Shown: positions 11,401-61,971 of the stretch, piece after piece | Numbering within the stretch: the stretch's first letter is position 1 | Layout: each line of letters opens with the position of its first letter | DNA from: Candidatus Colwellbacteria bacterium | GTDB lineage: Bacteria > Patescibacteriota > Minisyncoccia > UBA6257 > Colwellbacteraceae | Direction of reading: 5' to 3' | DNA: 64,000 bases | NCBI GenBank assembly: GCA_016176525.1 | Contig: JACOWZ010000003.1 | Span: forward strand, 128,001-192,000 | The notes under the pieces: generated by a model | The model's input: only the letters and a program-made list of their open reading frames with translations | The model's database searches: none | Told to the model about the DNA's origin: nothing | Program-made: the position numbers and the translations under genes

Positions 11401-11922
11401 TTACTTTAAGCTCTTTATCTTTTTTTTCAGCTCAACCATCTTGAGCTCTCTGCCAACCATAAATTTATTCATTCTCTCAATCTCTTTTGTGTGACGCTCG
11501 GCTTCTTTCTGACTTTCCACCTCTTTTGTTATGTCTCTAAAAATCTCTATAGAGCCAATTGGCTTATTATCTAAAATAATCGGCGAGGCGGTTATAAAGA
11601 CCGGGAAAACACTGCCGTCTTTTCTAACATAGTTTGATGTGCCGCTTACAGACTCCCCCGTTTGCAAAGATTTAGTAACCAATCTATCTGTAGCCGGCAC
11701 CGGTCTGCCGTCATTATCTATATCTTTAACCACATCCGGAAACCACTTGCCTAAAAGGTCGCTTTCTTCGCATCCAAGGAAACTAAGGGCGGGTTTATTT
11801 ACTTTATTAATTTTCCCGCTCTCGTCTATTGCAATAAAGCCGTCGCCAATACTTTCTATTGTCGCCTCAAGACGCAAACGCTCTTCTGTAATTTTCGCGT
11901 TCTCATCTGTATTTTTAACCAT
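11401..11922 (-). CDS. Stand-alone PAS protein with C-terminal MVGRELKM coiled coil
   Basis: PAS/PAC motifs (IGDGFIAID, RKDGSVFPV, IFRDITKE); no kinase domain. Confidence 0.85.
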   Translation of the reverse strand: MVKNTDENAKITEERLRLEATIESIGDGFIAIDESGKINKVNKPALSFLGCEESDLLGKWFPDVVKDIDNDGRPVPATDRLVTKSLQTGESVSGTSNYVRKDGSVFPVFITASPIILDNKPIGSIEIFRDITKEVESQKEAERHTKEIERMNKFMVGRELKMVELKKKIKSLK

Positions 11923-11928
11923 TTTTTA

Positions 11929-12171
11929 TCAACGAGTAAGGCTTATAAGTCTGGAGGTGAATTTATTTACTACCTCTGGGTCATTAGTAAGCAAAGCAAC
12001 CGAAACTTTCATCCAATCTATAAGTTTTAATAAATCTTCTGTTGTCATCTCCGACGGAGCTTTATGCAAATGGGTTCTAATTTGCCTGTCTATAAACCTG
12101 CCAGAGGCAGGGCCCAAGAAGTCATCGGCAACTTTTACAACTTCATCATATAACATAACTGTTGAAACCAT
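11929..12171 (-). CDS. Small helical hypothetical protein (80 aa)
   Basis: Closely spaced within the minus-strand gene run; FLGPASGRFIDRQI motif. Confidence 0.7.
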   Translation of the reverse strand: MVSTVMLYDEVVKVADDFLGPASGRFIDRQIRTHLHKAPSEMTTEDLLKLIDWMKVSVALLTNDPEVVNKFTSRLISLTR

Positions 12172-12179
12172 GATTTGTA

Positions 12180-13133
12180 TTATACTGACTCAATTTTTGT
12201 TAGCTTTCTAACGCCAATTGCAAGTGATATGTATGCGACTGCAATAATAAATATTAAAATGTAAATAAGGGCCAGAATCTGCCATAAGCCAAGTTGCAAA
12301 ATAGCTGCTGAACCTATCGACCTTAATCCTTCCAAGAAAATCGACAAAAATACAAGAAAAACTATTCCTAAAGAGATCCAATTAAACATACTTTTGTAAA
12401 TTATTCCTGTAGCTTCTTTAACATACCTGGAGAAACCTTGAATTGAAGCAATACCCAAAAACCACGCAATAAAAGTTGGCACAATAAGAGTTAGTGTCGC
12501 CGCAGCTGGACCTATATAATATGTCGGCCTAATATCTCCAACTTGTTGAAAAGAAGCTTCGTGCGAGAAAATTAAAGTAAGAAAAATATAACCCAGAAGA
12601 CTAATGAATACTGATGCAGCAATGATAAATTTCTTGGTAAACTTCAACGTTTTACCATGCAGGTTAAAAAAACGCATCGATGAACGCAGAAAATAACTAA
12701 ACCCTATAAGATAAGGTATAACAAAGAAATATTGGCTTAAAGTTGAGGTAATTGGTCTCCAAGAAAAATCAGAAGCACCTTGGGCAAAATAAGAACTTGT
12801 TGTTGAAATAATAGAAGATAATATTCCCAACCAAACAATAAAACCAACACCTTTTAGCATATCGCGGAATGCTGGTTCTTCTTTGGTGTCACGTATTAAA
12901 TTTACATAACGCTTTAAAGCTGAAAAAGCGAAAACCCCAGCGAACCAGATAATAAACATTGGTATTGCGAGGGTAACTCTTATTATAAATAACCCTTGTT
13001 CGGAAATATTGTACAAAGCCGCGGATTGCGGGTTTACAGGTGTGTTAAGTATAAGTGTTGAATAGACCAGTATCCAGAGAACAAGTATCGTGTAATATAT
13101 ATTCCACCCCTTAGTTTTTGCGGGCATAGCCAT
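12180..13133 (-). CDS. Multi-pass membrane protein (about 7-8 TM), possible sensor
   Basis: Repeated hydrophobic segments; TGCTATAAT just upstream. Confidence 0.75.
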   Translation of the reverse strand: MAMPAKTKGWNIYYTILVLWILVYSTLILNTPVNPQSAALYNISEQGLFIIRVTLAIPMFIIWFAGVFAFSALKRYVNLIRDTKEEPAFRDMLKGVGFIVWLGILSSIISTTSSYFAQGASDFSWRPITSTLSQYFFVIPYLIGFSYFLRSSMRFFNLHGKTLKFTKKFIIAASVFISLLGYIFLTLIFSHEASFQQVGDIRPTYYIGPAAATLTLIVPTFIAWFLGIASIQGFSRYVKEATGIIYKSMFNWISLGIVFLVFLSIFLEGLRSIGSAAILQLGLWQILALIYILIFIIAVAYISLAIGVRKLTKIESV

Positions 13134-13166
13134 ATTATTATAGATTATAGCACATCTATTTTAGTT

Positions 13167-13240
13167 TGGTCGGGCTGCTGGGAATTGAACCCAGTCTTTA
13201 CGCACCCGAAGCGCACGTACTACCGGTATACTACAGCCCG
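13167..13240 (-). tRNA. tRNA-Pro(CGG)
   Basis: Cloverleaf; anticodon loop TT-CGG-GT; CCA encoded. Confidence 0.93.
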
Positions 13241-13251
13241 TGGCTCAAATA

Positions 13252-13653
13252 TTATGCTCGATCCTTCTTTTTGTGAAGCTCTTTTGATTTTTGAGTAATC
13301 GCAAAAAGCGTCAGCACGCCTAAGTAGACACCGACAATTACATCGGATGGAATATGATAATCCTCGCCTAAGATAAAGGCAGCGGCAAGAATAGCAACCA
13401 TCACAACGGTCCAGAGTATCACGAATAACTCTCCCGGATGGCGCGATTCATGATGTTCATACCACCTTTCAAACTCTTTTGTCGTAACATACAAACCTAA
13501 TACGCCGGTATATAGCATACTAAGCGGCACAACTAAAAAGTTGTATGCGTTGTGGTTTATAAAATTCCACACGATAAAGCTGAGCATAACGAAAGTCCAA
13601 AAATTGGTAAGCCGCCTCCAGAATCTTCCTTGGTTAAGAATAATGTCTGCCAT
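13252..13653 (-). CDS. Hypothetical 4-TM membrane protein
   Basis: Four hydrophobic stretches; overlaps the cca stop codon. Confidence 0.75.
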   Translation of the reverse strand: MADIILNQGRFWRRLTNFWTFVMLSFIVWNFINHNAYNFLVVPLSMLYTGVLGLYVTTKEFERWYEHHESRHPGELFVILWTVVMVAILAAAFILGEDYHIPSDVIVGVYLGVLTLFAITQKSKELHKKKDRA

Positions 13654-15152
13654 TACTTAATAAAATATTTCGTTTTTATTTCCTCGTCAATTCTGTTTTG
13701 CGCCTCTTCGGCACTTTTCTTTGCGCCCGCTGAAAGTTTGTTTAATTCCTTATCGCTTAACTTGTTTAGTTCCGCAGCTTTTTCTAAAAGCTTTGTTTTA
13801 GTGTTTTCCTTGGGCTCTGCTAAAACTTCTTCTAAGAGAATAGTGATAATTTGGCCTAGCCGCGGTCCTGCCTCAATTTTAATTTCTTTTATTAAATCGT
13901 TGCCGTTAATTTTTAGCATCTTAGGGCTAATCGGGTCGGACTTAACTTTCTCTATCATTGCTTGGAGCGCACGCAATCTGTATGGCTGGGCTTTTGGAAC
14001 GCCGGAACCAATGCGGTCTGCCTCGCGCACTTTTATTAAATCGCCTACATTTTCTTCGCCAACACGCTTTATAAGTCTGCGCACTCCAGCCGGAGTTACA
14101 ACCTCTGGGTCGTAAACAAACATATGCTCGCGCACCAATAAAGACACTTTATCTACAATCTCGCGCGAAAATTTTAGGCGCTCCAAGATTTTCTTCGCCA
14201 TTCGCTCACCCACAACCTGGTGGCCGTAAAAAGTGCAGTCTGGCCCCTCGCCTCTTTTACTCTTGGGCTTGCCAACATCGTGTAACAGCGAAGCAATTCG
14301 GACTTCCAACGAATAGCCCTTTTTTGCAGAATACTCTAGCGACTTAACATTGTGCTCGAAAACCGTATAGATATGGTGTTTGTTCTGCCCAACGCCAATT
14401 CCATCTCGAAGTTCCGGAATAATGTGTTTCAAAAGTCCGGAGACCTCTAATAATTCAACTCCCGCACGAGCATTTTCTGCCATAATAAGTTTTGCAAACT
14501 CATCTCTAATACGCTCTTTGGCAATTTTCTCTAATAAATCAGAATTATTGTTTATAGCAAACTGTGTTTGGGACTCTATACTAAAACTAAATTGAGTAGC
14601 AAAACGTACCGCACGCATCAGCCGCAGTGCGTCTTCGCTAAACCGTTCTTCTGCATTGCCCACAGCACGGATTATTTTATCTTTGAGGTCTTTCAAGCCA
14701 TTATATGGATCAACCAAAATTAGCCCTTTAACGGTGTTATGATGTGTCATAACACCGTTTAACTCGTTAGATAAGTTAAAAGCTATGGCATTGATTGTAA
14801 AATCTCTGCGAGAAAGATCTTCTTCTATAGTCTTGGCAAACTCAACTTTGTCTGGATGGCGCGCATCAGAATAGCTGCTTTCTTTGCGAAAGGTTGTAAC
14901 TTCTACAACTTTAAGTATTTCGTCATCGGAGTCGGTTTTTATGCCAACTGTGCCGAACTTGTTTTCGTAAACGCTATCTGAAAAAACTTTTTGTATTTCT
15001 TCCGGCCTAGCATCCGTAGCTATGTCCCAATCACTGGGAGTGCGGTTAATTAGTAAGTCGCGCAAACAACCGCCTACTAAATATGCCGAAAAATTATTTT
15101 TCGCGAGCTTTTCTGCAATTACTGAAACTTCTTTTGGAATGTTGAATTTCAT
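13653..15152 (-). CDS. cca: CCA tRNA nucleotidyltransferase with HD domain
   Basis: GGCLRD, DWDIAT, RRDFTINA, EDALR, LLHDVGK. Confidence 0.9.
   Translation of the reverse strand: MKFNIPKEVSVIAEKLAKNNFSAYLVGGCLRDLLINRTPSDWDIATDARPEEIQKVFSDSVYENKFGTVGIKTDSDDEILKVVEVTTFRKESSYSDARHPDKVEFAKTIEEDLSRRDFTINAIAFNLSNELNGVMTHHNTVKGLILVDPYNGLKDLKDKIIRAVGNAEERFSEDALRLMRAVRFATQFSFSIESQTQFAINNNSDLLEKIAKERIRDEFAKLIMAENARAGVELLEVSGLLKHIIPELRDGIGVGQNKHHIYTVFEHNVKSLEYSAKKGYSLEVRIASLLHDVGKPKSKRGEGPDCTFYGHQVVGERMAKKILERLKFSREIVDKVSLLVREHMFVYDPEVVTPAGVRRLIKRVGEENVGDLIKVREADRIGSGVPKAQPYRLRALQAMIEKVKSDPISPKMLKINGNDLIKEIKIEAGPRLGQIITILLEEVLAEPKENTKTKLLEKAAELNKLSDKELNKLSAGAKKSAEEAQNRIDEEIKTKYFIK
14730..14759. repeat. 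In-frame palindrome inside cca
   Basis: AACGGTGTTATGA-TGTG-TCATAACACCGTT; sister copy at 41040-41067. Confidence 0.85.
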
Positions 15153-15191
15153 GTGTTTTAATTATAACCTGTTCTTGAAAGTAAAAAACTT

Positions 15192-15263
15192 GCCCCTGTC
15201 GTTCAACGGATAGGATAACTGGCTTCGAACCAGTGGATGGGAGTTCGATTCTCTCCGGGGGCA
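15192..15263 (+). tRNA. tRNA-Arg(TCG)
   Basis: ACTGG-CTTCGAA-CCAGT anticodon arm; no encoded CCA. Confidence 0.93.
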
Positions 15264-15433
15264 CACAAACAAAAACAAACCCAATAAAAGTGGGTTTGTC
15301 TTTGTTTGATATGTTTTAGCGAATCGAAGACCGCAGCCGATTTTTAAGCTTCAAAAATCGGCGAGGGGCGGCCTGCGAGCGCGACGAGCGACGGCGAGGA
15401 GCGACTTGTAGGCGATTCTCTCCGGGGGCACAC
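15246..15433 (+). repeat. 21-bp direct repeat of the tRNA-Arg 3' end around a hairpin-rich spacer
   Basis: CGATTCTCTCCGGGGGCACAC at 15246-15266 and 15413-15433. Confidence 0.85.
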
Positions 15434-15462
15434 TTGACAATTTAGGTTAAATATGCCATACT
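15434..15462 (+). promoter_or_regulatory. Sigma70-type promoter
   Basis: TTGACA-17-CATACT. Confidence 0.65.
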
Positions 15463-15545
15463 AGTGGCAGTCCCTTTAATTAAAGGAGGAATGTTGTACG
15501 AACCAAACAGTAGAGAAAACCAACCAGCTTGGTCCTGCAGTACGA

Positions 15546-16151
15546 ATGGCTCTCGTGCAGATGGATTTTACTAATGAGGAGCTTGTGCCTCTCATTATTA
15601 AAAAACTCCAGCGCGAGAAGAAGCAACAGTTCGCAACCCGTAAAAGCAGACGAAGCGGCGCGCAACTCGTAGACATCCGGGATATTCTGGTGTCGGCAGA
15701 AACTCTCGCCGAAGGCCTGAAAAACGCCGGCTACGAGCTAACAGACGCGCACTACGAACCCCGGCAAGACCAGCGCAACCAAAACCGAACCTACCACATG
15801 GTGCGGTTCTGGTTTACGAGGAGTGAGCATGCAAAACCCTCCACAGACTTTCTGTCTGTGCGAGAGGGTGTGCTCTCCGAACTTGAGCGAATGCTTACAA
15901 CCAACTTCTGGAAGCAGTTGCGGGTATACCGCAACCCCTTCTACAGTCCGGAAACGGGCGAAGAAGTTGAAGAAGCGCGCACAATGTCGGTGAACCTCGG
16001 CGTGCCGGAACGGATCTTCGATGAAAAGAACGTCCGCCGCGAAGTATGGGTTCGGGACCAAAACGGGCTAAAAACCCACAAAACCGCGATCTCCCACGAT
16101 CTTAGCATCTACGCGGACAAAACCGCGATACATGCTGTAGGTCCGAGCTAG
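15546..16151 (+). CDS. Hypothetical protein; may start at ACG 15498
   Basis: 201-aa ORF with its own promoter and terminator; AAGGAGG 8 nt before an in-frame ACG. Confidence 0.7.
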   Translation: MALVQMDFTNEELVPLIIKKLQREKKQQFATRKSRRSGAQLVDIRDILVSAETLAEGLKNAGYELTDAHYEPRQDQRNQNRTYHMVRFWFTRSEHAKPSTDFLSVREGVLSELERMLTTNFWKQLRVYRNPFYSPETGEEVEEARTMSVNLGVPERIFDEKNVRREVWVRDQNGLKTHKTAISHDLSIYADKTAIHAVGPS

Positions 16152-16170
16152 CGGTATCTCTCCCCAACTA

Positions 16171-16208
16171 GGGGCACAAAGGCAATCGCCAATGTGCCCC
16201 ATTTTTTT
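16171..16208 (+). terminator. Intrinsic terminator
   Basis: GGGGCACA...TGTGCCCC followed by a T run. Confidence 0.75.
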
Positions 16209-16224
16209 ATCCACATATGGTGAC

Positions 16225-16253
16225 TTGACATAGAACAAGCTTTATGCTAACAT
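16225..16253 (+). promoter_or_regulatory. Sigma70-type promoter
   Basis: TTGACA-17-TAACAT with extended TG. Confidence 0.7.
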
Positions 16254-16330
16254 TAGAAGCAGAGTTGGAAGAGGGTCTTCCAACTAACAGTACCTAGACA
16301 AAAGAAAAAGAGACCGGTAAAGCCGGAAAA

Positions 16331-17089
16331 ATGAAGGAGAGAAGGGAAATGCAAAAACTGCAAAACGGAATAACCGTAAAGAACGACGACCAGCGAACGA
16401 AGGAAGCTCTGGAGCGGGCGGAAGCAAAGAAGGCGAGCGTGATGCCGTGCATCACGGTACGCCTTGCGAAGAGTTCCGCAAGGCTTCTCGATGAGCTCAA
16501 GGAGAAGGGCATCAAACTGATCCCCGACCTTGAAAGCGACGGGCATGTGCTCGCTGCGTTCAAGGATGGAGAGAAAGTTCCCCTCGTCCTGGAGAGCGCG
16601 GTTGCAACCGGAGGAGCTCGCCCCACGATCCTTGAGTTCATGGGGCCGAAAGAACTCCGAAGCACCTACACTCGCTTCGCCGTGTCGCAGAGGGACTTCA
16701 GGGAGAAGACCTTTGCTCCGACCAAGCGCACGCGCTACAACAACTCCGCTGGTGAAGACGAGGTGCGGTGCATGTCGGAAGGACATGGCAAGGTTCAGGC
16801 GCCAGCGAAAACCGAGCTTGTCGTGTCCGAGGTCAACACCGATGGAGGGTGTATCATCACGGAGTACACCTTCACCGTCTCCACGAAGGACGGCGCGGTC
16901 AGCATCACGGCTCGCAAACTCGCCCAGTTCCAGATGGTTCCCCGAGAACTTCTGGGTCTGAAGCCTGCCATGGACCACGCATACGACGAAGCAACGCGTG
17001 ACGTGGAATTCTGGCAAGAGCGAGACAGGCAGAACAGGATCGGCCGGAACGGGAGCAACCACTTCCGCAACGGCCACCAGCACCGCTAA
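16331..17089 (+). CDS. Hypothetical protein, GC-richer than its flanks
   Basis: 252-aa ORF; AAGGAG suggests a start at ATG 16349; promoter and terminator present. Confidence 0.7.
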   Translation: MKERREMQKLQNGITVKNDDQRTKEALERAEAKKASVMPCITVRLAKSSARLLDELKEKGIKLIPDLESDGHVLAAFKDGEKVPLVLESAVATGGARPTILEFMGPKELRSTYTRFAVSQRDFREKTFAPTKRTRYNNSAGEDEVRCMSEGHGKVQAPAKTELVVSEVNTDGGCIITEYTFTVSTKDGAVSITARKLAQFQMVPRELLGLKPAMDHAYDEATRDVEFWQERDRQNRIGRNGSNHFRNGHQHR

Positions 17090-17120
17090 GACCTTCGAAC
17101 TCTCTACCCACTCTTTTCCC

Positions 17121-17155
17121 GCCCAAACAGATTCGTCTGTTTGGGCACTTTTTTT
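17121..17155 (+). terminator. Intrinsic terminator
   Basis: GCCCAAACAGA-TTCG-TCTGTTTGGGC followed by a T run. Confidence 0.8.
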
Positions 17156-17239
17156 ATCCAAATATTATATATATTGACAATATAATATATTTATGCTAAA
17201 AAATAAGCAGTACTCCAAAAGATAGGGAGTCTGTTGTAG

Positions 17240-17881
17240 ATGAATGGAATGGAACTCGTGAGAACACTGCCGGTTTTAAAGCCGGTTGGAGTGCAGTTCC
17301 AAAAAGACACACTTGGGCAAGAAGAACTGCACCAAAACCTAAGGCATCTAGAAGATGCCGGTGTACCAGATACCGCCGTTAAAGTTGCCGAAACCAAAAA
17401 AGGCAGAGCTATAAGAGTTACGCTCTTAAACGGCATAGATGCACATGGATTGCAGAAAGACAATTCGTGGAAGCTGGGCGTAATCTTAGAGCTAGTGAGA
17501 AGCAAAGACCCGGACGAAAATTACGGAATCGGCCTTGCAGCCGTATACAGGATTCCGTTTGAGTATATCCAGGCACTTTGTTTACACCACAACGGAACCC
17601 GCAAATGGATAGCGCAGCTTAAGCGCAGCAACGCTTATGTTGTGCGAGCAAAAAAAGACGGCACATTAAACTTCTTCCACATTGATGCAAACTTTCCAGA
17701 TGGAAAGGTAAACGCTTTTTTGGAAGAAGACGAAGAACGCAGCCGAACTGATTATGCAGAAAGGCCACAACTCTTTACTGCTTTCGGCTTCGCTTTTCAG
17801 AACATGCAAACGAGACTGCCGGAACAATGGCAGCAATTTAGCCGCAACGGGCAGGCAAAAAGCTCTAGTGAAATTCACTAG
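17240..17881 (+). CDS. Hypothetical protein
   Basis: 213-aa ORF; TTGACA-17-TAAAAA at 17174-17202; GGGAG RBS. Confidence 0.7.
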   Translation: MNGMELVRTLPVLKPVGVQFQKDTLGQEELHQNLRHLEDAGVPDTAVKVAETKKGRAIRVTLLNGIDAHGLQKDNSWKLGVILELVRSKDPDENYGIGLAAVYRIPFEYIQALCLHHNGTRKWIAQLKRSNAYVVRAKKDGTLNFFHIDANFPDGKVNAFLEEDEERSRTDYAERPQLFTAFGFAFQNMQTRLPEQWQQFSRNGQAKSSSEIH

Positions 17882-17927
17882 AGCAATTTTTGTTTTGTAT
17901 TTGATGAAATATTCTAAATAGATAACG

Positions 17928-18527
17928 TTATAGACTAGATTGTTTATCTGCGATTCTCTTTTTAAGATCCGCTATTCTCAACTCCCTGGTGATCATATTT
18001 TTATTGAACTCCTTCAACTTGCTATTTTTCATAGAAATTTCCTTATAAACAGTCTCTAAAGATAAGGTTTCTGTGACTAATTCTTTTTCTATTTTCTTAA
18101 CGCCATCAACTTGCCTAGAAAGCTCTTTGTTTATTTCTCTGAGTTTTGTAGGACTAATTAGTTTTAACATAGAAGGAACGGCAACCGCATATGCGACAAA
18201 TGATGCAAAAGATATAAGACCCGTGCCGAGATCAATCGTACCGGCGAGATAATACGCCGGATAAAAAAATACTAAGGCGTTAATAAAATGGCTGGTGCTG
18301 CACCAAACCCCAAAGACGGTAATAACCAAAAAGACCCATCTAAAAGAGAAATCCTTCCTTTTGATATAGATATAAAAAAGCTCGGCTGGAATAACAAGAT
18401 AAGTGATGCCGATTAAAATATTGGCAATTATAAGCGTCCACATCAGCCCGATATTATTTGGAATAAAATGCGCACTGTGAGGCTCGAACCCGCCGGAGTT
18501 TAATATTAGATTAATAAAATCAAGCAT
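17928..18527 (-). CDS. Ethylene-receptor-like membrane domain plus coiled coil, no kinase
   Basis: ITYLVIPAELFY...FRWVF...WCSTSHF matches the ETR1 TM1-TM2 pattern; tail MITRELRI. Confidence 0.75.
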   Translation of the reverse strand: MLDFINLILNSGGFEPHSAHFIPNNIGLMWTLIIANILIGITYLVIPAELFYIYIKRKDFSFRWVFLVITVFGVWCSTSHFINALVFFYPAYYLAGTIDLGTGLISFASFVAYAVAVPSMLKLISPTKLREINKELSRQVDGVKKIEKELVTETLSLETVYKEISMKNSKLKEFNKNMITRELRIADLKKRIADKQSSL

Positions 18528-19116
18528 GTTTGTTGTCTATATCAACCAATTGGGCTTCTAATTCTTTGACGGCGCTATCGCGATTCGCCATGATTCTATT
18601 AAAATTTTCCAATTCCTCGTTTTTCAATATCAAATTCTCGCTGGCTTTTTTGAGCTCTTCTTTCTTTACCGCAAGTTCTCCTAATTTAGACTCTCGACTT
18701 TTAATTTCATCAGAGAGAGATTTGTTGGCTTGCTGCATTTGTTCCGGGCTTACCAAACTAACAATGATAGGCAAGAAGTAAAGCATAGCTACCGCGGTCG
18801 CGGCCGAAACCAAAAAAGTTACGACGCTGATTATCGCCTGCAGATAATATGCCGGATACCAGAAGATAAGAACATGCATTAAATGGGTAAGGCCGCATAA
18901 GAAGATAAAAGCCCCGAAAAGCAAAACCATCCAGTTCAGATACAAATCCCTTCTTTTTCTAACGAAATATATGATTACAACCGGGATTAAGAGATAAGCC
19001 AAGAAACTGAAGGCATTCCCATACACCGACAGATCCATTGCAATCGGAGTATCAAAAAAGTGTGCTCTATGAGGTTCAAAAACAGAACCATCAAAAATTA
19101 ATTTAAGAAAGTCCAT
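18520..19116 (-). CDS. Ethylene-receptor-like membrane domain plus coiled coil, no kinase
   Basis: LAYLLIPVVIIYFV...FGAFIFLCGLTHL versus ETR1 FGAFIVLCGATHL; start placed at ATG 19116 by paralog alignment. Confidence 0.8.
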   Translation of the reverse strand: MDFLKLIFDGSVFEPHRAHFFDTPIAMDLSVYGNAFSFLAYLLIPVVIIYFVRKRRDLYLNWMVLLFGAFIFLCGLTHLMHVLIFWYPAYYLQAIISVVTFLVSAATAVAMLYFLPIIVSLVSPEQMQQANKSLSDEIKSRESKLGELAVKKEELKKASENLILKNEELENFNRIMANRDSAVKELEAQLVDIDNKHA

Positions 19117-19315: not shown

Positions 19316-19318
19316 CAG

Positions 19319-25218: not shown

Positions 25219-25815
25219 TTAATCGGCAATACTAAACTCAATACTCGGATTGAGGGTTTTAATCTTTTCTACCGGAATTACATAAGCGGACTCAGGCTGG
25301 GTGATTAAAACAGACAATCCATCCATCTTTTCTCCCAGATTCATAAGCTTAGAAAGAAAATCAGTAATTCTTTTTTCTTCGTTATACAGCAAAAAAGCCA
25401 TTACAGAGTCAACAAACAAAAACTTTTTCTCGGATTTTATATTATTTATAGCTTCGGTGGCGCATTTATAGATATCATCCAGAGAAAACGGCCCTTCAAC
25501 AAAATCAACCCCATTTATATTGGTAACACCCTTTTCTGCAACTCCGTATGACACGGAAATTGCGTCAATTACCATAATATTGTCCGCCCAATGGATGCCG
25601 CGATCTTTTATCTGTTGCATAAACTCCGTGGCGCTTTTGAACGCGCTTAATAAAACACCTTTATAGCCCATAGAGATAAGTTCGGAGAGAACCCTGGAGG
25701 TTATTTCAAAATCGTCTCGGAGCGCGGCCTTTATAGTAATGATTCTTGGATTTTGAACCAAGGCTTTTTGAAGCTCAGACTCTATTTCCTTCTTTTTAAT
25801 TGCCTTCTGTAACAT
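25219..25815 (-). CDS. Degenerate RecA/KaiC-fold protein with no Walker A
   Basis: Walker-B-like FLFVDS(V)xxxLLYN and IDAIS; adjacent to a KaiC-like gene. Confidence 0.6.
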   Translation of the reverse strand: MLQKAIKKKEIESELQKALVQNPRIITIKAALRDDFEITSRVLSELISMGYKGVLLSAFKSATEFMQQIKDRGIHWADNIMVIDAISVSYGVAEKGVTNINGVDFVEGPFSLDDIYKCATEAINNIKSEKKFLFVDSVMAFLLYNEEKRITDFLSKLMNLGEKMDGLSVLITQPESAYVIPVEKIKTLNPSIEFSIAD

Positions 25816-25834
25816 TAATACTCTTATTTGCCGC

Positions 25835-27310
25835 TTATTTATTTAACGGCCCTGTAATACTGATTCCTTTTTTATTGATTTCATATTCTATAATTTCTTT
25901 TTCATGCCATGAGCCGCGAAGTTTTAAAATATTAAGAACGTTTATAATCTTTTTTTCGCGCTCTATATAGCGGGCTAGAATTACGCCGTCAACGAGCGAG
26001 CTTAGGCGAAGCGCTGTTGCGGATGTGGGCCCGAAGGTCTGTGGCGGAACAGATACGAATAAACTTGGCTCTAAGTGATTCACATACGCCGTGATGCCCT
26101 CGCTCTTTAAAAAGAAGTTTAGCTGGACTAAAAATTCGCGAACAAGTTCAAGAGGAATTTTACGCGATTCAATTGAAGATATTGAGTCAATTAAAATCCG
26201 TTTTGTATCCGGCTTATTTTTGGCTGCATTCACTATTTTATAGAGCAGCTTATCAAGATTGGTGTCTAGAAGACTCTCGCTAACAAATGCAAGTTGGCCG
26301 GATTTCTTAAATTTCTCGAGATCAAAGCCATATTCAGCCGCTGTTTTAACAATCTGTTCTGGCGGCTCTTCCATCGTCAGATAAATAACATCTTCTCCTT
26401 TTAGCAAGCCGTCCATAAGAAAATGCAGGCCAAAGGTTGTCTTGCCGGTGCCGGTGTTTCCGCTTATTAGCATTAAGTGCCCATAAGGAACTCCGCCACC
26501 CAGCATCTTGTCTAAAGCGGGCAGGCCGCTTGAGAGCCTTTCTGTAATATCAGTTTTAAAAGTGGAGCTGTAAGATGGAATTTTGGGGTAAATAATAACT
26601 CCATCGCCTGTGATATCAAAAATAACCTGACCGCTTCTGTAAGATACGCCGCGCATCTTTTCTACGTTCAACCTGCGGATCATAGACTGTTCCCCAAGAG
26701 TGTAGTTCAGCACAATAATTCCATCCGCCACAGAGTCTTCTACTCCGAATACCGACAAGCCCTGGTTATTTCTTTCAGCTATTAATAAGAGAGTCGCATT
26801 TCTAATTGACATAGCCCTTATAAGCCTTGAGAGAAATACCCTTGCCGTGGCCACATCTGTAAGCCTATATAAAAATCCTGTAATGTTGTCAAAAACCACT
26901 CGTTTTGAGCCAAGTTTATCAACTAAATTGGTAATAGCTTGAACAACTGCATTTATATCTTTTGAATCCAACTTTTTTTCCTCAAGATTCCGGCCTTTTA
27001 CCAAAATTTCTAAGTCAGAAAAATAAACTCCTGCTTCATCCACCGCGCTCTGGCTATAAAACCCAAGGGTTCTAGTATTTTTTATAGCCGAAGCAATAGG
27101 CTCCGTTGTGCTTATGTATACTCCCGGCTCTTTAAACTTTGTATAACCGGTAAATAGCCACTGCAAGCCAATAACAGTTTTTCCCGTACCGGGCTGACCA
27201 GAAAGTATAACAGAAGAACCTTCCACCAACCCGCCATTTAAAACCGAATCCAGGCCGGGAATTCCCATGGGCTGAATTTGCAATTTTTCCTCTACAAGCG
27301 GTTTTTTCAT
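25835..27310 (-). CDS. KaiC-like double-domain ATPase
   Basis: Two Walker A motifs (GQPGTGKT, GNTGTGKT), KMRG/KLRG fingers, LSSLVD phosphosite-like motif. Confidence 0.88.
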   Translation of the reverse strand: MKKPLVEEKLQIQPMGIPGLDSVLNGGLVEGSSVILSGQPGTGKTVIGLQWLFTGYTKFKEPGVYISTTEPIASAIKNTRTLGFYSQSAVDEAGVYFSDLEILVKGRNLEEKKLDSKDINAVVQAITNLVDKLGSKRVVFDNITGFLYRLTDVATARVFLSRLIRAMSIRNATLLLIAERNNQGLSVFGVEDSVADGIIVLNYTLGEQSMIRRLNVEKMRGVSYRSGQVIFDITGDGVIIYPKIPSYSSTFKTDITERLSSGLPALDKMLGGGVPYGHLMLISGNTGTGKTTFGLHFLMDGLLKGEDVIYLTMEEPPEQIVKTAAEYGFDLEKFKKSGQLAFVSESLLDTNLDKLLYKIVNAAKNKPDTKRILIDSISSIESRKIPLELVREFLVQLNFFLKSEGITAYVNHLEPSLFVSVPPQTFGPTSATALRLSSLVDGVILARYIEREKKIINVLNILKLRGSWHEKEIIEYEINKKGISITGPLNK

Positions 27311-54423: not shown

Positions 54424-54430
54424 GCACAAT

Positions 54431-54458: not shown

Positions 54459-54462
54459 ATTG

Positions 54463-54534
54463 TGCCGCGGGGGTGAATCGAACACCCGACGCCAGCCTCT
54501 TCAGGGCTGCGCTCTACCACTGAGCTACCACGGC
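54463..54534 (-). tRNA. tRNA-Phe(GAA)
   Basis: CAGCC-CTGAAGA-GGCTG arm. Confidence 0.93.
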
Positions 54535-54611
54535 ATTTAAAGAATATAAACATCTTAAACTTTAAGTTTTAAAATTGCAATTAGAAAAAACACAATGTAT
54601 TCTCTCTGTAA

Positions 54612-54686
54612 GCCCCTGTCGTTCAATGGATAGGACGGAGGTTTCCTAAACCTCAAATCCAAGTTCGATTCTTGGTGGGGGCACCA
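54612..54686 (+). tRNA. tRNA-Arg(CCT)
   Basis: GAGGT-TTCCTAA-ACCTC arm; CCA encoded. Confidence 0.93.
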
Positions 54687-54691
54687 GAATT

Positions 54692-55639: not shown

Positions 55640-55685
55640 TAATTATACAAAATAGAAAATTTGTTTTAAACTTCTAAAAGTTTAT

Positions 55686-55757
55686 GCTCCTGTAGTTCAA
55701 TGGACAGAACAGAAGGTTTCTAACCTTTTAATGGGGGTTCGATTCCCTCCGGGAGCA
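55686..55757 (+). tRNA. tRNA-Arg(TCT)
   Basis: GAAGG-TTTCTAA-CCTTT arm. Confidence 0.92.
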
Positions 55758-55764
55758 CAAGCTA

Positions 55765-55835
55765 CGGGCTGTCGTATAATGGCAGTATACGTGTTTTGGG
55801 AACACGCGGCCTGGGTTCGATTCCCAGCAGCCCGA
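55765..55835 (+). tRNA. tRNA-Pro(TGG)
   Basis: CGTGT-TTTGGGA-ACACG arm. Confidence 0.92.
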
Positions 55836-55896
55836 CAAAAATAAAATATCTCGAGCGAGCAGTGAGAAGCGCAGCGTCCCAGCAGACCGACCAAAA

Positions 55897-55923
55897 GCGA
55901 AACCCCCTATTCGGGGGTTTCGC
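55897..55923. terminator. Hairpin between the tRNA pair and a convergent gene
   Basis: GCGAAACCCCC-TATTC-GGGGGTTTCGC. Confidence 0.75.
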
Positions 55924-55933
55924 ATATAAATTT

Positions 55934-56332
55934 TTACATCTGACCTCCTTGTCGCGAAGGTGGGGTCTGCATTGGCATAGCTCCACTTTTTCTGCCTGCA
56001 AAACCTGCCCACAAAAGGACAACTGCTACAACAAGCTGCAACCAACTTGAGGCCGCGTTTGTAGCGACTAGCCCCAAAATTTTACCGTCTTGCGCAAAGA
56101 ATCCTAAAACTGCCAAAATCACGTAAATTACGCCCAAGGCCTTAAGGTACATCGCACCGGACGCGCCGCCTTTAGCAGCCCACAAAACCACGATGCCTGT
56201 GGCAAGAAGCAGTATTCCATGTGTGGCGTCTGCCGCGAAAAATGCTCCTTCTCCAACTATCGGGTTGCCTATAAAACTAAGAAGCCCCAAAAGCGCAAGT
56301 ATAGCGCCTGTTGCCATTACTACATTCTTCAT
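55934..56332 (-). CDS. DUF4383-like 4-TM membrane protein
   Basis: Pattern G.LL.LLGLL.F...H..L.L.TG...GVIYVILAVLGF. Confidence 0.65.
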   Translation of the reverse strand: MKNVVMATGAILALLGLLSFIGNPIVGEGAFFAADATHGILLLATGIVVLWAAKGGASGAMYLKALGVIYVILAVLGFFAQDGKILGLVATNAASSWLQLVVAVVLLWAGFAGRKSGAMPMQTPPSRQGGQM

Positions 56333-56416
56333 GATGATTGAATTGTTAAAAGAAGTAATAAATCGACCTTTACATTGTAAATTATAACAAATTAGGTAAA
56401 ATCAAAACTATTGCTA

Positions 56417-56487
56417 CCCCCCATAGCTTAGTGGTAAAGCTACGGACTCTTAATCCGCAGATCAAGGTTCGATTCCTTGTGGGGGGA
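56417..56487 (+). tRNA. tRNA-Lys(CTT)
   Basis: CT-CTT-AA loop; CCCCCCA/TGGGGGG acceptor stem. Confidence 0.9.
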
Positions 56488-56489
56488 CA

Positions 56490-56828
56490 ATGAATTTAGT
56501 AAATAAAAAATGTGTGCCGTGCAAGGGGGGAACACCTCCGATAGAATACGGTGAGGCAAAAAAACTGCACGAACAAATACCTTCTTGGCAATTAATAGAA
56601 GAATACAAAATTTGGCGGCTAAAGAAGACTTACAAATTCAAAGAATTTGCGCAAGCGATGCAATTTGTAAATAAAGTTGCCGATATCGCAGAGCGCGAGG
56701 GGCACCACCCAAACATCAATATACATGATTGGAATAGAGTGGATTTAGAAATCTATACACATAAAATAAAGGGCTTGCACGAAAACGACTTTATACTGGC
56801 GGCAAAAATTGAACAGCTGGCTCTATAA
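56490..56828 (+). CDS. Pterin-4a-carbinolamine dehydratase
   Basis: CVPC, EGHHPNI, THKIKGLHENDFILAAKI. Confidence 0.92.
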   Translation: MNLVNKKCVPCKGGTPPIEYGEAKKLHEQIPSWQLIEEYKIWRLKKTYKFKEFAQAMQFVNKVADIAEREGHHPNINIHDWNRVDLEIYTHKIKGLHENDFILAAKIEQLAL

Positions 56829-56835
56829 TTAAGAT

Positions 56836-58983
56836 ATGCTTGTAAAGCTGGAGACTCCATTAGGCGAAATTCGCGGTATTGGGCCACATTTTTTGCCTCG
56901 CCTGAAAAAGCTAGGGATTTTAACAGCGCGTGACCTTTTGTACCATTTTCCTTCCCGCTACGAAGACTGGAGTGAAATTGTTAATATTGCGGAATTAAAA
57001 TCAGAGACAGCCTCCTCCGCTAAAGCTACGGGCGGCCAAAGTAAAACAATACGCGCAAGGGTTATAAAAATTGAATCCCGCAGAGCTTGGACAAGGCGAA
57101 AAATGCTAATTATTGAAGGCCTTCTCGCAGACGACTCTGGCGAAATACAAGCAGTTTGGTTTAACCAGCCATATATAAAAAATATATTAAAACCCGGTAC
57201 ACTTGCGAACTTTGCGGGAAAAATCTCGGCGCGCAACAGCAAATTAATTCTCTCAAATCCGACTTATGAATTGGTTGGCAAAACAGAGGCAAAACACACC
57301 GGCCGGCTTGTGCCAATTTATCCAGAAACTAAAGGACTAACATCCAAAGGATTAAGATTTGTTATAAAAGGCGTGTTGGATCACCTAGAAGAAATAGGCG
57401 ACTTTATCCCACCAGAAATTCTTAAATCGGAGAAGATTCCAGAGATAAATAAAGCTCTGCAAAACATACATTTCCCAAAAACTTCTAAAAGCGCGGGAGA
57501 TGCAAAAAACAGGTTCGCATTTGAAGAGCTCTTTTTATTGCAGCTGCGCAACTTACGCGAAAAACTTGCTATTCGCCGCGAGCGCGCACATAAGATAGCA
57601 CACACAAACGATGAAATTAAAGATATATTAAAGGGACTGCCGTTTGAGCTTACAATATCGCAAAAGAAAGCTCTTGTAGAAATATTAAAAGATTTAGACC
57701 AAAACCACCCAATGAACCGCCTGCTCCAAGGCGACGTGGGTTCCGGCAAAACAGTTGTGGCGGGTATTGCTGCGCTTATTGCCGGCAAAGTTGGGCAGGT
57801 TGCAATTATGGCCCCAACCGAAATTTTAGCCCGCCAGCACTACAAAACACTTGTCAAACTCTTTGGTGACGCACACACAAATATCGCACTCTTAATTGGA
57901 AAAGAAGCACGCATACATTACGGCAAAGAACTAGAGACAGCATCAACAAAATCAGATTTAATAAAAAAAATTGCCTCCGGCGAGATAAAAATAGTCGTTG
58001 GCACGCATGCTTTAATACAAAAGAATGTAAAGTTCAAGAATCTCGGCTTAGTTGTTATTGACGAACAGCATAGATTTGGAGTTAGCCAAAGAGCACAGCT
58101 TACCCATTCGACAAGCTCAGGGCAAACTATGCCGCATTTTTTAAGTATGTCTGCAACACCAATACCTAGAACACTAATGCTCTCTATATTCGGCGATTTA
58201 GACTTATCAATAATAGATGAGCTCCCAAAAGGAAGAAAGACAATTTTAACTAAAGTCGTATCCCCTCATAACCGCGACAAAGCATACGCTTTTATACGCG
58301 GACAAGTGCGCCGCGGCAGGCAGGTATTTGTGGTATGCCCACGAATAACAATAAATAATCAAGAACAAGTAACCAAGAATAAATTAGAATTACAGGACAT
58401 AAAAAATGTTGAAGAAGAATATAAAAAGCTGTCTAAAAATGTATTCCCAGACCTAATGGTTCAAATGCTGCACGGTAAGTTAAAAAGTGAAGAAAAGAAA
58501 AAAGTAATGTCTGATTTTACAGATGGCAAAATTGACATACTTGTAACAACTTCTGTTATTGAAGTTGGCGTTGATGTGCCCAATGCCACAATTATGATGA
58601 TAGAAGGGGCAGAAAGGTTCGGACTCGCACAACTTTACCAATTTCGTGGGCGCGTTGGCCGAGGCGAGCACCAATCTTTTTGTTTTTTGTTTACAGAGGC
58701 GGAGTCTAAAACTGCAGAAAAACGCCTTGAGGCAATTGCAAAGGCGAAAAATGGATTTGAATTAGCAGAAGTTGACTTAAAAATACGCGGGCCGGGAGAA
58801 TTTTTGGGCCAATCTCAAACCGGAATACCGGATATCGCCATGGAATCCTTAAAAAATCCGGAGTTACTTGGGCGCGTCCGCACTACAGCGCTAGAAATAA
58901 TTGCGAAAGACCCAGACCTTAAAACACACACCGCCTTATTAGAAAAACTGCGAGAATTCAAACAAAGAGTGCACTTAGAATAA
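56836..58983 (+). CDS. recG: ATP-dependent DNA helicase RecG
   Basis: LLQGDVGSGKT, DEQHRFG, SATPIPR, QFRGRVGRG, RGPGE. Confidence 0.97.
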   Translation: MLVKLETPLGEIRGIGPHFLPRLKKLGILTARDLLYHFPSRYEDWSEIVNIAELKSETASSAKATGGQSKTIRARVIKIESRRAWTRRKMLIIEGLLADDSGEIQAVWFNQPYIKNILKPGTLANFAGKISARNSKLILSNPTYELVGKTEAKHTGRLVPIYPETKGLTSKGLRFVIKGVLDHLEEIGDFIPPEILKSEKIPEINKALQNIHFPKTSKSAGDAKNRFAFEELFLLQLRNLREKLAIRRERAHKIAHTNDEIKDILKGLPFELTISQKKALVEILKDLDQNHPMNRLLQGDVGSGKTVVAGIAALIAGKVGQVAIMAPTEILARQHYKTLVKLFGDAHTNIALLIGKEARIHYGKELETASTKSDLIKKIASGEIKIVVGTHALIQKNVKFKNLGLVVIDEQHRFGVSQRAQLTHSTSSGQTMPHFLSMSATPIPRTLMLSIFGDLDLSIIDELPKGRKTILTKVVSPHNRDKAYAFIRGQVRRGRQVFVVCPRITINNQEQVTKNKLELQDIKNVEEEYKKLSKNVFPDLMVQMLHGKLKSEEKKKVMSDFTDGKIDILVTTSVIEVGVDVPNATIMMIEGAERFGLAQLYQFRGRVGRGEHQSFCFLFTEAESKTAEKRLEAIAKAKNGFELAEVDLKIRGPGEFLGQSQTGIPDIAMESLKNPELLGRVRTTALEIIAKDPDLKTHTALLEKLREFKQRVHLE

Positions 58984-58984
58984 G

Positions 58985-60532
58985 CTAACGTTCTTCACTC
59001 TGGTAATCTTGGTACTGTTGATCCTGGTATTGTTGGTCTTGATATTGCTGATCATATTCCTCTTGATGCTGTTCATCGTAATACTGCTGAGACTGCTCCT
59101 CGTATTGCCTTTGATATTCTTCGCGCTTCGGGAAAACACACTGGCCTTCCTGCCAATATCCCCCTTGTTCAGCGCAGACTCTGGCAGCTTCGTCCTCGCG
59201 CCCTCCGCGCTCTTCACTATTGCCATAACCTCCACAGTCTTGTGGGTTTGCCTCACAATAAGCACGACATTCTTCCTGAGTACTACACCCGCCAGGCCCA
59301 GAAGATTCAAAACCTCCACCCTCTCGCTGAGCTCCGCTTTCATTTGAGCCAGGGCCAAAACCACGGCATTCTTCTGGGTTTTCCTTACAATAAGCCATAC
59401 ATTCCTCTTCGGTTTGGCAACCTCCAGGTCCAGAAAAACCGCCCTCGTGATCTCCAAACCCCTCTGGACCGGGCTGGAAACTTTGGAAACACGCCTCCAT
59501 TTTTTCACCCAATTGCGGAGTTGGGAAACCCTCGCCATTCAACAGCCGGTTAAACTCCGCCTCACCTATACTTTGTTTCAAGCACTCTATAACTTCGGGC
59601 GGAGCTTGCTCCAAACCGCGAGAAAATTCTTGTAAGCCCTCTTTCATACGAGCCTTATCTTCGTCGGATATAAAGCCAGCTTCTTCTGCAAAACGGAAAC
59701 ACTCTTCTACATTATTCTCGTCGTTGCAATACGCCTCGCACTGCTCTTTAGTTCTACAGCCACCCGGCATCTTGCCTTCTTTCATAAAAGTAAGCATCTT
59801 GCGAGCTTGCGATGCCTCCTCCTCATTCATAAGTCCCATCTTTAAACCAAACTCCATACATTCCTCTATGTTTTCGCCCTCAAAACAATACGCTTCACAT
59901 TCTCTTTGCGTACGACATCCACCAGGGGTTTCGCCGTTTCTCATAAGCTCCATAGCGCGCTTTGCGGTTTCCAGTTCGCCCTTATCCATAAAGCCGGCTT
60001 CTTCGGCAAAGGCCAAACATTCTTCCATATTGTCCGGGTTCATGCAGTATTCTTCGCAAGCTTCTTTGTTTGTGCAGCCTGCTGGAATTTGCACACCGCG
60101 CTTGATAGCCGACCGGATTTTTTTAGCTTCGTCTAAATCTTCATTGTCAATAAACCCGTGACGTTCTGCAAACTCTATGCACTCATCTAAGTTTTGGACA
60201 TTATTGCAGTAAGCCTCACAAGAAACATGACTTGTGCAACCTCCAGGACCACCCTCTTTCATCGCACTAGCAAACTTATCTAGGTCTTCTTCTTTTTGCT
60301 CTGCAATAGGCCCTTCAACTAAATTGTGCTTTTTAGCAAAAGCAAAACATGCGCGGAAATTATCCGGATTGTCGCAATACGAGCGGCACTCCTCCTCGCT
60401 TGTGCAACCACCAAGTTCTTCAACTGGGAATACAATATCATCTTTGGAGGCGGCATCTGCAATAGACACGAGAGATGCAACAAAGAGCGGTAAAAAAGCT
60501 AGCGCTAAAACAAGTGTAATGCGTTTATTCAT
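58985..60532 (-). CDS. Secreted cysteine-repeat protein
   Basis: Signal peptide; 7 copies of GGC-x5-C-x2-YC-x6/8-C; QQYQD-repeat tail. Confidence 0.8.
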   Translation of the reverse strand: MNKRITLVLALAFLPLFVASLVSIADAASKDDIVFPVEELGGCTSEEECRSYCDNPDNFRACFAFAKKHNLVEGPIAEQKEEDLDKFASAMKEGGPGGCTSHVSCEAYCNNVQNLDECIEFAERHGFIDNEDLDEAKKIRSAIKRGVQIPAGCTNKEACEEYCMNPDNMEECLAFAEEAGFMDKGELETAKRAMELMRNGETPGGCRTQRECEAYCFEGENIEECMEFGLKMGLMNEEEASQARKMLTFMKEGKMPGGCRTKEQCEAYCNDENNVEECFRFAEEAGFISDEDKARMKEGLQEFSRGLEQAPPEVIECLKQSIGEAEFNRLLNGEGFPTPQLGEKMEACFQSFQPGPEGFGDHEGGFSGPGGCQTEEECMAYCKENPEECRGFGPGSNESGAQREGGGFESSGPGGCSTQEECRAYCEANPQDCGGYGNSEERGGREDEAARVCAEQGGYWQEGQCVFPKREEYQRQYEEQSQQYYDEQHQEEYDQQYQDQQYQDQQYQDYQSEER

Positions 60533-60755
60533 TAAAAGGATTTTGATATGTTTGGGTAAAGGGATTAGTTTCTCTAAGCGGGTTGGTATCTGGCAAATCG
60601 GAAGCTGGGTTTTGTTCTATAGGGGCAAGGATAGACGGGGTTGTTAAATCTTCCAGCGTTGCAGGCGCGCTTTGTTTTTTGAAGAAAAATAAATAATAAA
60701 TGGCCGCAGCTACAAGCACCAATATGGCAATTAGAACAATAGTGTTCTTCTGCAT
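60525..60755 (-). CDS. Small single-TM protein
   Basis: N-terminal TM with an NP-rich tail; TGATATAAT upstream; overlaps the start of the next gene. Confidence 0.7.
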   Translation of the reverse strand: MQKNTIVLIAILVLVAAAIYYLFFFKKQSAPATLEDLTTPSILAPIEQNPASDLPDTNPLRETNPFTQTYQNPFNE

Positions 60756-60813
60756 GTTATAGAAATTATATCATAATTGATTTTTATTACAGAGTGGATA
60801 TTATTATATGTAC

Positions 60814-60885
60814 GCGGGTATCGTATAGTGGCTATTATACCTCGTTGCCAACGAGGAGATGGCGGTTCGATTCCGCTTACCCGCT
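60814..60885 (+). tRNA. tRNA-Gly(GCC)
   Basis: CCTCG-TTGCCAA-CGAGG arm; U73. Confidence 0.93.
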
Positions 60886-61971
60886 CTGTTTGTTTTTGAG
60901 TTTTTCTAACTCTTCTTTTAGCTTTATCATCTTTAGTTCTCTTCCTATCATTAGTTTGTTCATTGTTTCTAACTCATTGATTTTTTCTTGTAGTTCCTGT
61001 GTTCGCTCTTTTACTTGTTTTTCTAATTGTATTTTTAAAGAAGCCAATATCTCTTTTTTTTCTCTTTCAGTCTGCTCCGCTTCTTTTAAAACTGCTTTTT
61101 CTCTTTCGCGCCGTTTAACCTCTTCGGTGCGATCGTTTACAAAAAATGCAATTCCAATTTGCCTGTTATGGCCGTTTTGCACCGGCGAGAGTGCAGTAGA
61201 AATTATTAAATCTTCTCCTTTACGGTTTTTGGTTTTAACCTCCAAAGCGGTAGTTGATTTGTTTTTTATGGCTTCTTTAAAAAGACCGAGTAATTTATCT
61301 TTAAACTCGCCAACCGCTTTATCAAAAATTAATTTTCCAGAAACATCAACTTCGCTCAAGCCAAAAAGTTTTTGCGCACTCACGTTCCACTGAGTAATTC
61401 TTCCATCCAAATCTGTGATAAATATAGCCTCTCCGGCGTTGTCTAAAACATTTTTAAAATAACGCGATGAGAGCAAAAGACGGCGATATTCGGGTACGTC
61501 AAGCGGCGGGTCTGTACGTATTTGTTCGCGCACCGCGCCGATTGTAGTGCGCATTCTTCTTTTCTGTTTTATGCCTTGAATAAGCTCTAAAACTCGGTTT
61601 TTAAAATCGAAAATGGAATTTATATCTATAACAAGCCAAGAATCGCCTACTCGCGCGGCATATTTAAAATCTCGCTCCATATCTTCTTTTCTTTTTTTAT
61701 TTTCTGTTAAAAATATATAAACCATATCTGGTTCAAGCGAATAAAAATAACGTGCCAATTCAAGTGAAGCAGCCAAATCTTGCTCAAAAATAACTATGAG
61801 GGGGTGCCTCCGCTCATCAAAAAGTTGCTTAAATATTTCTTTAGCTTTATCCCTCTTTGCTATTACACAATCTAAGCTTTCTACAAATAAATCTTTAAAA
61901 AGAATGCGTTCTTTATCCGAAATTTTTCCGGATTCGTTTACATATAAATAACAATCACTTTTAGTCTGCAT
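60877..61971 (-). CDS. PAS protein with a degenerate receiver-like N-terminus and MIGRELKM tail
   Basis: AGEAIFITDLDGRITQWN...FFVNDRTE PAS/PAC; no kinase domain. Confidence 0.8.
   Translation of the reverse strand: MQTKSDCYLYVNESGKISDKERILFKDLFVESLDCVIAKRDKAKEIFKQLFDERRHPLIVIFEQDLAASLELARYFYSLEPDMVYIFLTENKKRKEDMERDFKYAARVGDSWLVIDINSIFDFKNRVLELIQGIKQKRRMRTTIGAVREQIRTDPPLDVPEYRRLLLSSRYFKNVLDNAGEAIFITDLDGRITQWNVSAQKLFGLSEVDVSGKLIFDKAVGEFKDKLLGLFKEAIKNKSTTALEVKTKNRKGEDLIISTALSPVQNGHNRQIGIAFFVNDRTEEVKRREREKAVLKEAEQTEREKKEILASLKIQLEKQVKERTQELQEKINELETMNKLMIGRELKMIKLKEELEKLKNKQSG

Follow-up and report, generated by a model that had tools for sequence, protein, structure and literature searches.

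A conserved C-terminal helix of enzyme-less sensors and a candidate partner helix in signaling enzymes

Tail-bearing sensor genes and the window kinase

The window analyzed here is a 64,000-nucleotide stretch (C1:128001-192000) of Candidatus Colwellbacteria bacterium (assembly GCA_016176525.1, contig JACOWZ010000003.1), part of a 656-kb genome in four contigs that is rated 100% complete. It encodes sensor proteins that contain no enzyme and end in a short motif, which we call the RELK tail, and a histidine kinase whose acidic helix carries a second conserved motif, AxLNILED, which we call the socket (Table 1; genes are named below by their first coordinate). Ranked with a profile made from 115 tails of other genomes, the four tail genes of the window and a fifth outside it take places 1 to 5 among 3,816 open reading frames (ORFs) of this genome, and the sixth-ranked ORF has an expectation value (E) of 1.6. 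The initial annotation had described one tail shared by four window genes. The consensus ELExxNKxMVGRELKMxELKKEI is indeed clear in three of these ORFs (11401, 17928 and 60877). The fourth, 18520, lacks the E, L, K and M that follow the Arg, reading RDSAV instead of RELKM, and because its score is also marginal we regard it as a decayed copy. Pfam assigns PAS to 11401 and 60877 and ETR1_N to 17928 and 18520, and finds no catalytic domain or MCPsignal domain in any of the four, in agreement with the earlier description of varied inputs that lack a catalytic output. Neither Pfam nor NCBIfam has a family covering the tails of the four proteins.

The 11401 gene, in which the tail Arg lies 28 residues (four heptads) past the PAS-terminal DIT, heads a tight minus-strand run with gaps of 2-30 bp that extends to the kinase and thyA, and that contains two surface proteins, a REC-coiled-coil protein, a REC protein, the kinase, a second REC protein and thyA. 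As proposed previously, the 2871 kinase has an acidic coiled coil and no extracytoplasmic sensor: both motifs quoted for it are present, and its sequence has a single N-terminal hydrophobic anchor and no outside domain. It is the only one of the six HisKA genes in the genome to carry a socket, which AlphaFold2 places within one continuous helix entering the PAS domain (helix 2-62 of the model, predicted local distance difference test score about 90). The two stand-alone REC proteins are likely the phospho-acceptors of this kinase.

Table 1. Kinase locus and tail-bearing genes (window positions unless prefixed C1; rank refers to the genome-wide tail-profile search)
Feature	Position	Strand	Evidence and details
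Stand-alone receiver (REC) protein	2484..2858	-	Pfam
Histidine kinase: membrane anchor, socket coiled coil, PAS, HisKA, HATPase	2871..4283	-	Pfam PAS-HisKA-HATPase; His237 at 3573-3575
Socket motif LEDTKVAALNILEDLD	4029..4076	-	socket profile E 2e-12
Stand-alone receiver (REC) protein	4290..4661	-	Pfam
REC domain followed by a charged helix of about 550 aa; RELK motif absent	4683..6746	-	Pfam, tail profile
PAS sensor and RELK tail, 173 aa	11401..11922	-	ORF reading, Pfam, tail profile; rank 2, E 5e-15
Tail of the 11401 gene	11404..11481	-	invariant Arg at 11449-11451
ETR1_N membrane sensor and tail, 199 aa	17928..18527	-	tail 17931..18017 (TRELRIADLKK); rank 4, profile E 7e-8
ETR1_N paralogue, decayed tail	18520..19116	-	tail 18523..18612 (NRDSAVKELE); rank 5, profile E 0.017
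165-aa N-domain, PAS, S-helix-like linker (ERT) and tail, 364 aa	60877..61971	-	tail 60880..60972; rank 1, E 2e-18
Fifth tail gene (PAS), outside the window	C1:54267-54803		between a DoxX-like gene and msrA/msrB-like genes; rank 3, E 2e-13

Several features of these loci were observed in passing. Within the kinase operon, the helix that follows the receiver in 4683..6746 is rich in Ala, Glu and Lys, first acidic and then strongly basic. The same gene run includes a cohesin-domain and a dockerin/FN3 surface protein (6768..11370), situated between the PAS-tail gene and the kinase. Just upstream of 11401 is a 317-aa multi-pass membrane protein (12180..13133) that has no Pfam or NCBIfam match and no relative in the fetched loci. 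The two ETR1_N genes overlap by 8 bp, and these tandem ethylene-receptor-like sensors of a tiny-genome bacterium, one with a decayed tail, adjoin a tRNA gene. Both retain the helix II CxxxH motif (CSTSH and CGLTH), and by-eye alignment apparently places Asn at the position of ETR1 Asp25. According to the available part of PMC10266040, Cys65 and His69 of ETR1 are copper ligands, and Asp-to-Asn is rare among natural variants and lowers the affinity for ethylene. The 60877 gene is 6 bp downstream of an acyl-CoA dehydrogenase (the two spanning 60877..63381) for which Rv1679/FadE16 is the nearest model, below cut-off. No family or relative of the 165-aa N-domain of 60877 was found in the fetched data, and the idea that this domain is a decayed receiver was unsupported (hhalign 0.1%).

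Distribution of the tail and the socket

When searched against 1.84 billion representatives, the tail profile matches 15,250 protein clusters at E<=0.001. In 136 of the 149 top proteins the chain stops no more than 30 residues past the last tail, in nine it stops within 60 and in four later. Likewise, all nine non-self relatives of the 11401 protein end in the tail, and in a sample of 121 genomes from the same order 18 of 19 non-self matches are genuine tails, 17 of which end within 14 residues. A pattern scan of GTDB confirmed at least 487 stretches, from which 76 loci were kept for locus analysis; these come from Patescibacteria, Geobacter relatives, Bacteroidota, Nitrospirota, Omnitrophota and several archaea, and in them 113 of 116 closed tail ORFs stop within 30 residues of the tail. 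Among 120 of 2,080 relatives, the inputs are PAS, HAMP, Cache, GAF, REC, HisKA_7TM and others, and none has HisKA, HATPase, GGDEF or MCPsignal. In addition, an H-box is absent from all 273 tail-search proteins, the only carrier in the set of 274 being the window kinase itself. The tail proteins are therefore not truncated kinases, in line with the kinase-less sensors of the initial annotation.

Across 116 aligned tails, R, E and K are invariant, G, M, E and L are near-invariant, and there is no His column. Read in heptads, the column profile puts the Arg in the core and lines up V, G, L, I/V and E as a conserved stripe on the outside, for which a generic coiled coil would have no need. About 20 residues before the tail Arg, an ERT signature is found in many rows (R in 77/116, T in 84/116); it is present in 60877 and not in 11401, 17928 or 18520, and it belongs to the linker and not to the tail. 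Codon use for the Arg and Glu of the tail matches background in 116 genes, indicating that the constraint acts on the protein, and on these grounds an RNA-level signal or an internal start was rejected. Searches elsewhere gave little: the PDB sequence search returned five matches, the best at E 1.1, the ESM Atlas gave unnamed or PAS/HAMP clusters and no family across the aligned part, and none of nine pattern matches in viral contigs was confirmed. In a minority of proteins the tail is followed by a related helical extension of 70-80 residues (L053:7182-8345, L088:7620-8327, L101:7497-8345, P0030 and P0077).

Kinases occur in 54 of the 76 tail loci. Of the kinases, 38 of 71 have the strict socket pattern AxxN[ILMV][LM]ED, mostly directly downstream of the tail gene, and a relaxed profile that includes the ALMNIVEDL-type variants of Geobacter relatives matches in 52 of 75 tail loci. 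The socket is also found upstream of GGDEF (L131, directly after a tail gene, and L143) and upstream of HisKA_3 (L140 and L080), and in L147 a diverged socket precedes HD-GYP, again directly after a tail gene; the shared target is thus the socket and not DHp. Some kinases (L064, L039, L052 and G525) begin about 30 residues or less from the socket, with nothing ahead of it to serve as an input. A word search with the socket region alone recovered nothing other than the query among 23 candidates. That tail and socket are the two helices of a split DHp (helix 1 and helix 2) was considered and is unsupported (socket against HisKA, hhalign 1.1%). One kinase (L132:766-1830), encoded directly downstream of a tail gene, repeats a socket-like motif four times in tandem and lacks its own sensor domain.

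In 117 cases the gene following a tail gene was a socket kinase 35 times, another tail gene 23 times and a socket-less kinase twice. The 33 adjacent tail-socket pairs are spaced from -26 to +44 bp in all three frames, and with the downstream frame distributed 16/11/6, programmed read-through from the tail gene into the kinase was rejected. Both motifs occur in one chain in 7 of the 149 top tail proteins, often around a PocR domain. Furthermore, in one genome (G218) tail, linker, socket, PAS and kinase lie in a single frame, whereas in a member of the same genus (G525) they are divided between two genes separated by 5 bp, and the kinase has its socket close to the N-terminus. For the fused G218 segment, AlphaFold2 run without an alignment gave helix-linker-helix with a predicted template modeling score of 0.40 and the helices not placed relative to each other. 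A metagenome scan of 154 stretches gave no further fusion. Two further families are also encoded between tail and kinase genes: one of 107 aa (L026:1725-2045) in two loci, and one of 200 aa without a Pfam match (L027:6145-6744 and 12 relatives, seven loci) between tail genes and socket kinases. The C-terminal Cys/Phe pattern of the latter is reminiscent of V4R-type ligand-binding domains.

The initial annotation called for a test of co-occurrence between tails and LNILEDL-type kinases, and the two do co-occur. At thresholds of E<=0.001 for tails and E<=0.01 for sockets, the socket was present in 12 of 15 tail-bearing and 1 of 106 tail-less genomes of the order, in 27 of 30 and 4 of 221 in the Patescibacteria phylum sample, in 19 of 28 and 2 of 123 in the phylum of Geobacter sp. 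OR-1, and in 14 of 17 and 2 of 184 in the archaeal phylum that includes a Woesearchaeota record; the first two of these samples share G000 and G026, and the tail and socket profiles each include a G000 row. HisKA itself is present in 118 of the 121 genomes of the order. On inspection, 12 of 14 order-level socket matches proved to be the motif in a kinase frame; of the other two, one fell in a frame that stops short of the kinase and the other could not be recovered locally. Ten of 18 tail-only and five of nine socket-only genomes were examined further. Four of the former (G515, G396, G716 and G059) have a diverged socket in the next gene, and G160 has a socket match in a 73-aa frame.

Tails outnumber sockets. 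In five genomes picked for having tails the ratios are 8:2, 5:1, 6:1, 2:1 and 3:1, the first being that of Geobacter sp. OR-1, with seven tails followed by one socket kinase in addition to a separate 1:1 pair; the window genome has five tails to one socket. Tails distant from the socket gene persist in socket genomes, the window genome included. Each helix also keeps a fixed heptad phase with its neighbor. In 137 of 150 proteins the tail Arg comes 7n or 7n+4 residues after the PAS motif D[IV][TS], and in 18 of 20 direct cases the socket Asp and the kinase His are separated by 24, 31 or 38, indicating that tail and socket are each held in phase with the neighboring domains, as would be expected of signal-carrying coiled coils, for which the S-helix (PMC1592074) is a precedent.

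Proposed docking of tail on socket and competing explanations

The motif pair is real, large and unannotated, and probably serves sensor-enzyme signaling in trans. From the sequences, we put at about two in three the probability that the RELK tail is the output plug of enzyme-less sensors and docks on the AxLNILED socket helix of a separate enzyme, in this genome the 2871 kinase. In such a mechanism the sensor dimer would end in a parallel coiled coil that is weakened by the Arg at its core position and bears the conserved outer stripe (V-G..L..I-E). This coiled coil would pack on the socket helix pair, which offers a small Ala, extra hydrophobic e/b positions and invariant N, E/D and D. The likely result would be a four-helix bundle in which Arg/Lys pair with Asp/Glu. 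Ligand binding would shift the tail, the tail would shift the socket helix, and the change of register would pass into HisKA, GGDEF or HD-GYP. In the window genome, a single kinase and its two receivers would take the input of all five tails. The initial annotation had pictured a shared helix through which many sensors regulate one kinase; the output helix, the link to LNILED-type kinases and the several tails per socket stand, and the docking itself is what we infer. A prediction of the complex (kinase residues 43-299 and tail, two copies each) scored 0.07 against a mark of 0.32 with the controls not folded, and is not used as evidence.

We lean somewhat more cautiously towards a general wiring rule, in which one signaling helix has been split in two. 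The plug would end thousands of unrelated sensors and the socket would precede histidine kinases, diguanylate cyclases and HD-GYP phosphodiesterases in bacteria and archaea, such that new genes bring new inputs to one enzyme, and proteins with both motifs chain into cascades.

Several observations weigh against docking. An unrelated gene comes next after 44 of the 117 tail genes. On follow-up, five tail-bearing genomes (G019, G092, G201, G483 and G433) had no convincing socket, and five socket-bearing genomes (G088, G203, G219, G459 and G385) had no tail at E<=0.5; the socket matches of G088 and G219 are at contig starts, and in G459 the socket belongs to a GGDEF gene that lacks a tail within 7 kb. 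The kinases from which the socket profile was made adjoin tails, and the phase counts include close relatives. Adjacent genes can co-occur by co-transfer alone, and because of this and the non-independence of kin, which inflate all counts, the Fisher values for co-occurrence (5e-13, 9e-29 and 2e-15) are overstated. Finally, the G218 fusion is one genome, one base from the split state, and as the two assemblies that agree on it come from one sample, it carries little weight.

Co-occurrence and adjacency would be equally compatible with tail and socket never touching, both being bound or modified by a common third factor, such as a receiver, a scaffold or an enzyme acting on Glu, Arg or Asp. Stand-alone REC genes, present in 42 of the 76 loci, would suit this role; however, besides kinases and REC no family recurs in more than 11 of the 76, the socket is also found on GGDEF and HD-GYP proteins, and in the heptad reading the complementary charge and outer hydrophobic stripes favor direct packing. 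We therefore judge a third factor unlikely.

Slightly less likely again is that the tail is a dead first helix of HisKA, a pseudo-kinase remnant in which Arg replaces the phospho-His and which heterodimerizes with the DHp of the kinase or sequesters receivers. The tail does start where HisKA would, after PAS, HAMP or the ERT linker, it shares the prefix ELExF with some kinases, and archaeal "HisKA, no HATPase" proteins are known from the available text of PMC5847659. Nevertheless, hhalign gives the tail a probability of at most 1% against HisKA without recovering the H-box register, and none of 21 tails matches HisKA. ELExF lies 6 residues from the His in five of five kinases and 7 from the Arg in 139 of 139 tails, while the PAS DIT lies 20 from the His in 40 of 48 kinases and 21, 28 or 35 from the tail Arg. 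Since both anchors place the Arg one residue later, it is Gly, not Arg, that occupies the His position. The alignment of MVGRELKM with IASHQLRT in the initial annotation is accordingly a likeness by eye that is not significant and is one residue out of register. The tail also has no Thr/Asn at H+4, no Pro and no second antiparallel helix, the chain ending within 30 residues in nearly all ORFs, and this explanation accounts neither for sockets on GGDEF and HD-GYP proteins nor for co-occurrence limited to socket kinases. Given the shared ELExF prefix, the tail may be a remote derivative of the linker that leads into HisKA.

It is improbable that the tail is a generic dimerization cap or the stump of a truncated kinase, linked to socket kinases by co-transfer as a cassette. 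The tail is a plain amphipathic helix with weak bZIP/SlyX-type matches, and the genes are adjacent, but its invariant R-E and K and near-invariant G, M, E and L hold across two domains of life, its ORFs stop shortly after it without an H-box, and tails far from the socket gene are kept.

Least credible as targets of the tails are the KaiC-like ATPase (25835..27310) and its probably inactive partner (25219..25815), which lie in the same window and belong to a group proposed as archaeal signaling hubs (cited in the available text of PMC5847659): KaiC (PF06745, E<=1e-25) is found in 2 of the 121 genomes, this one and the tail-less G038, is absent from the other 14 tail genomes of the order, and forms no cluster near the 76 tail loci, where just two weak P-loop matches were seen, so that KaiC as a general partner is largely refuted. 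The pair at 25219..27310, rare in the order, is a two-domain KaiC-like ATPase adjoining a short, probably inactive KaiC-like protein, with no kaiA or kaiB seen. Elsewhere in the window, 58985..60532 encodes a 515-aa secreted-looking protein with many Cys-containing repeats (C..EEEC..YC), a Gln/Tyr-rich end and no Pfam match.

If docking of tail on socket is correct, a defined output and a predictable target could be assigned to proteins of Patescibacteria, Geobacter relatives, Bacteroidota, Nitrospirota and DPANN/methanogen-related archaea that are now annotated as "PAS domain protein" or "hypothetical", and the integration of many inputs by tiny-genome organisms with few kinases would be accounted for. 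Two short helices, each with invariant residues, offer a sharp and cheap test, and Geobacter sp. OR-1 is a cultured carrier.

Relation to known signaling systems

In chemoreceptors (MCP) with CheW and CheA, many sensors of varied input likewise feed one kinase through a conserved C-terminal helical output that contains no enzyme. If the general wiring rule holds, tail and socket would integrate signals as chemoreceptors do, in a minimal form, and could serve directly as a part for building modular synthetic sensors. The tail is about 25 residues in place of the long MCP hairpin, it would act on class I kinases and on GGDEF and HD-GYP proteins, and MCPsignal, CheW, CheA, CheR and CheB are all missing from the recurring neighbor families of the 76 tail loci.

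The literature search turned up no paper that contains the motif strings or presents the concept; subscription papers and supplements, including Table S2 of PMC5847659, were outside it. The available portion of PMC13725321, which treats GGDEF linkers, has no such motif. The S-helix, as presented in the accessible text of Anantharaman, Balaji and Aravind 2006 (PMC1592074), is a parallel coiled coil that has a polar residue in its core and relays signals from sensor to catalytic domain. Its ERT signature is found upstream of the tail in many tail proteins, within the linker; however, on that description the S-helix lies between two signaling domains of one chain, whereas the RELK tail is terminal. 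In the archaeal "HisKA, no HATPase" proteins, too, sensor domains lead into a helical element at the C-terminus and an ATPase domain is lacking, but as far as the available part of Galperin et al. 2018 (PMC5847659) describes them they retain a conserved His in a HisKA-like domain, whereas the tail has neither the His nor detectable HisKA similarity.

The closest likeness in the accessible part of the literature is to H-NOX/HqsK and NosP/VpsS, in which stand-alone accessory sensors regulate sensor-less kinases in trans (PMC6769237, as far as available). As there, the sensor is separate and co-cistronic, and the kinase or cyclic di-GMP (c-di-GMP) enzyme has no sensor of its own; in the tail loci too, an enzyme-less sensor gene adjoins a gene for a kinase or c-di-GMP enzyme. 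The difference is that in H-NOX and NosP, on the same partial account, the sensor fold itself binds one partner, whereas in the tail system unrelated folds (PAS, HAMP/Cache, CHASE, GAF, REC, ETR1_N and HisKA_7TM) carry one portable helix, and the targets carry its portable counterpart.

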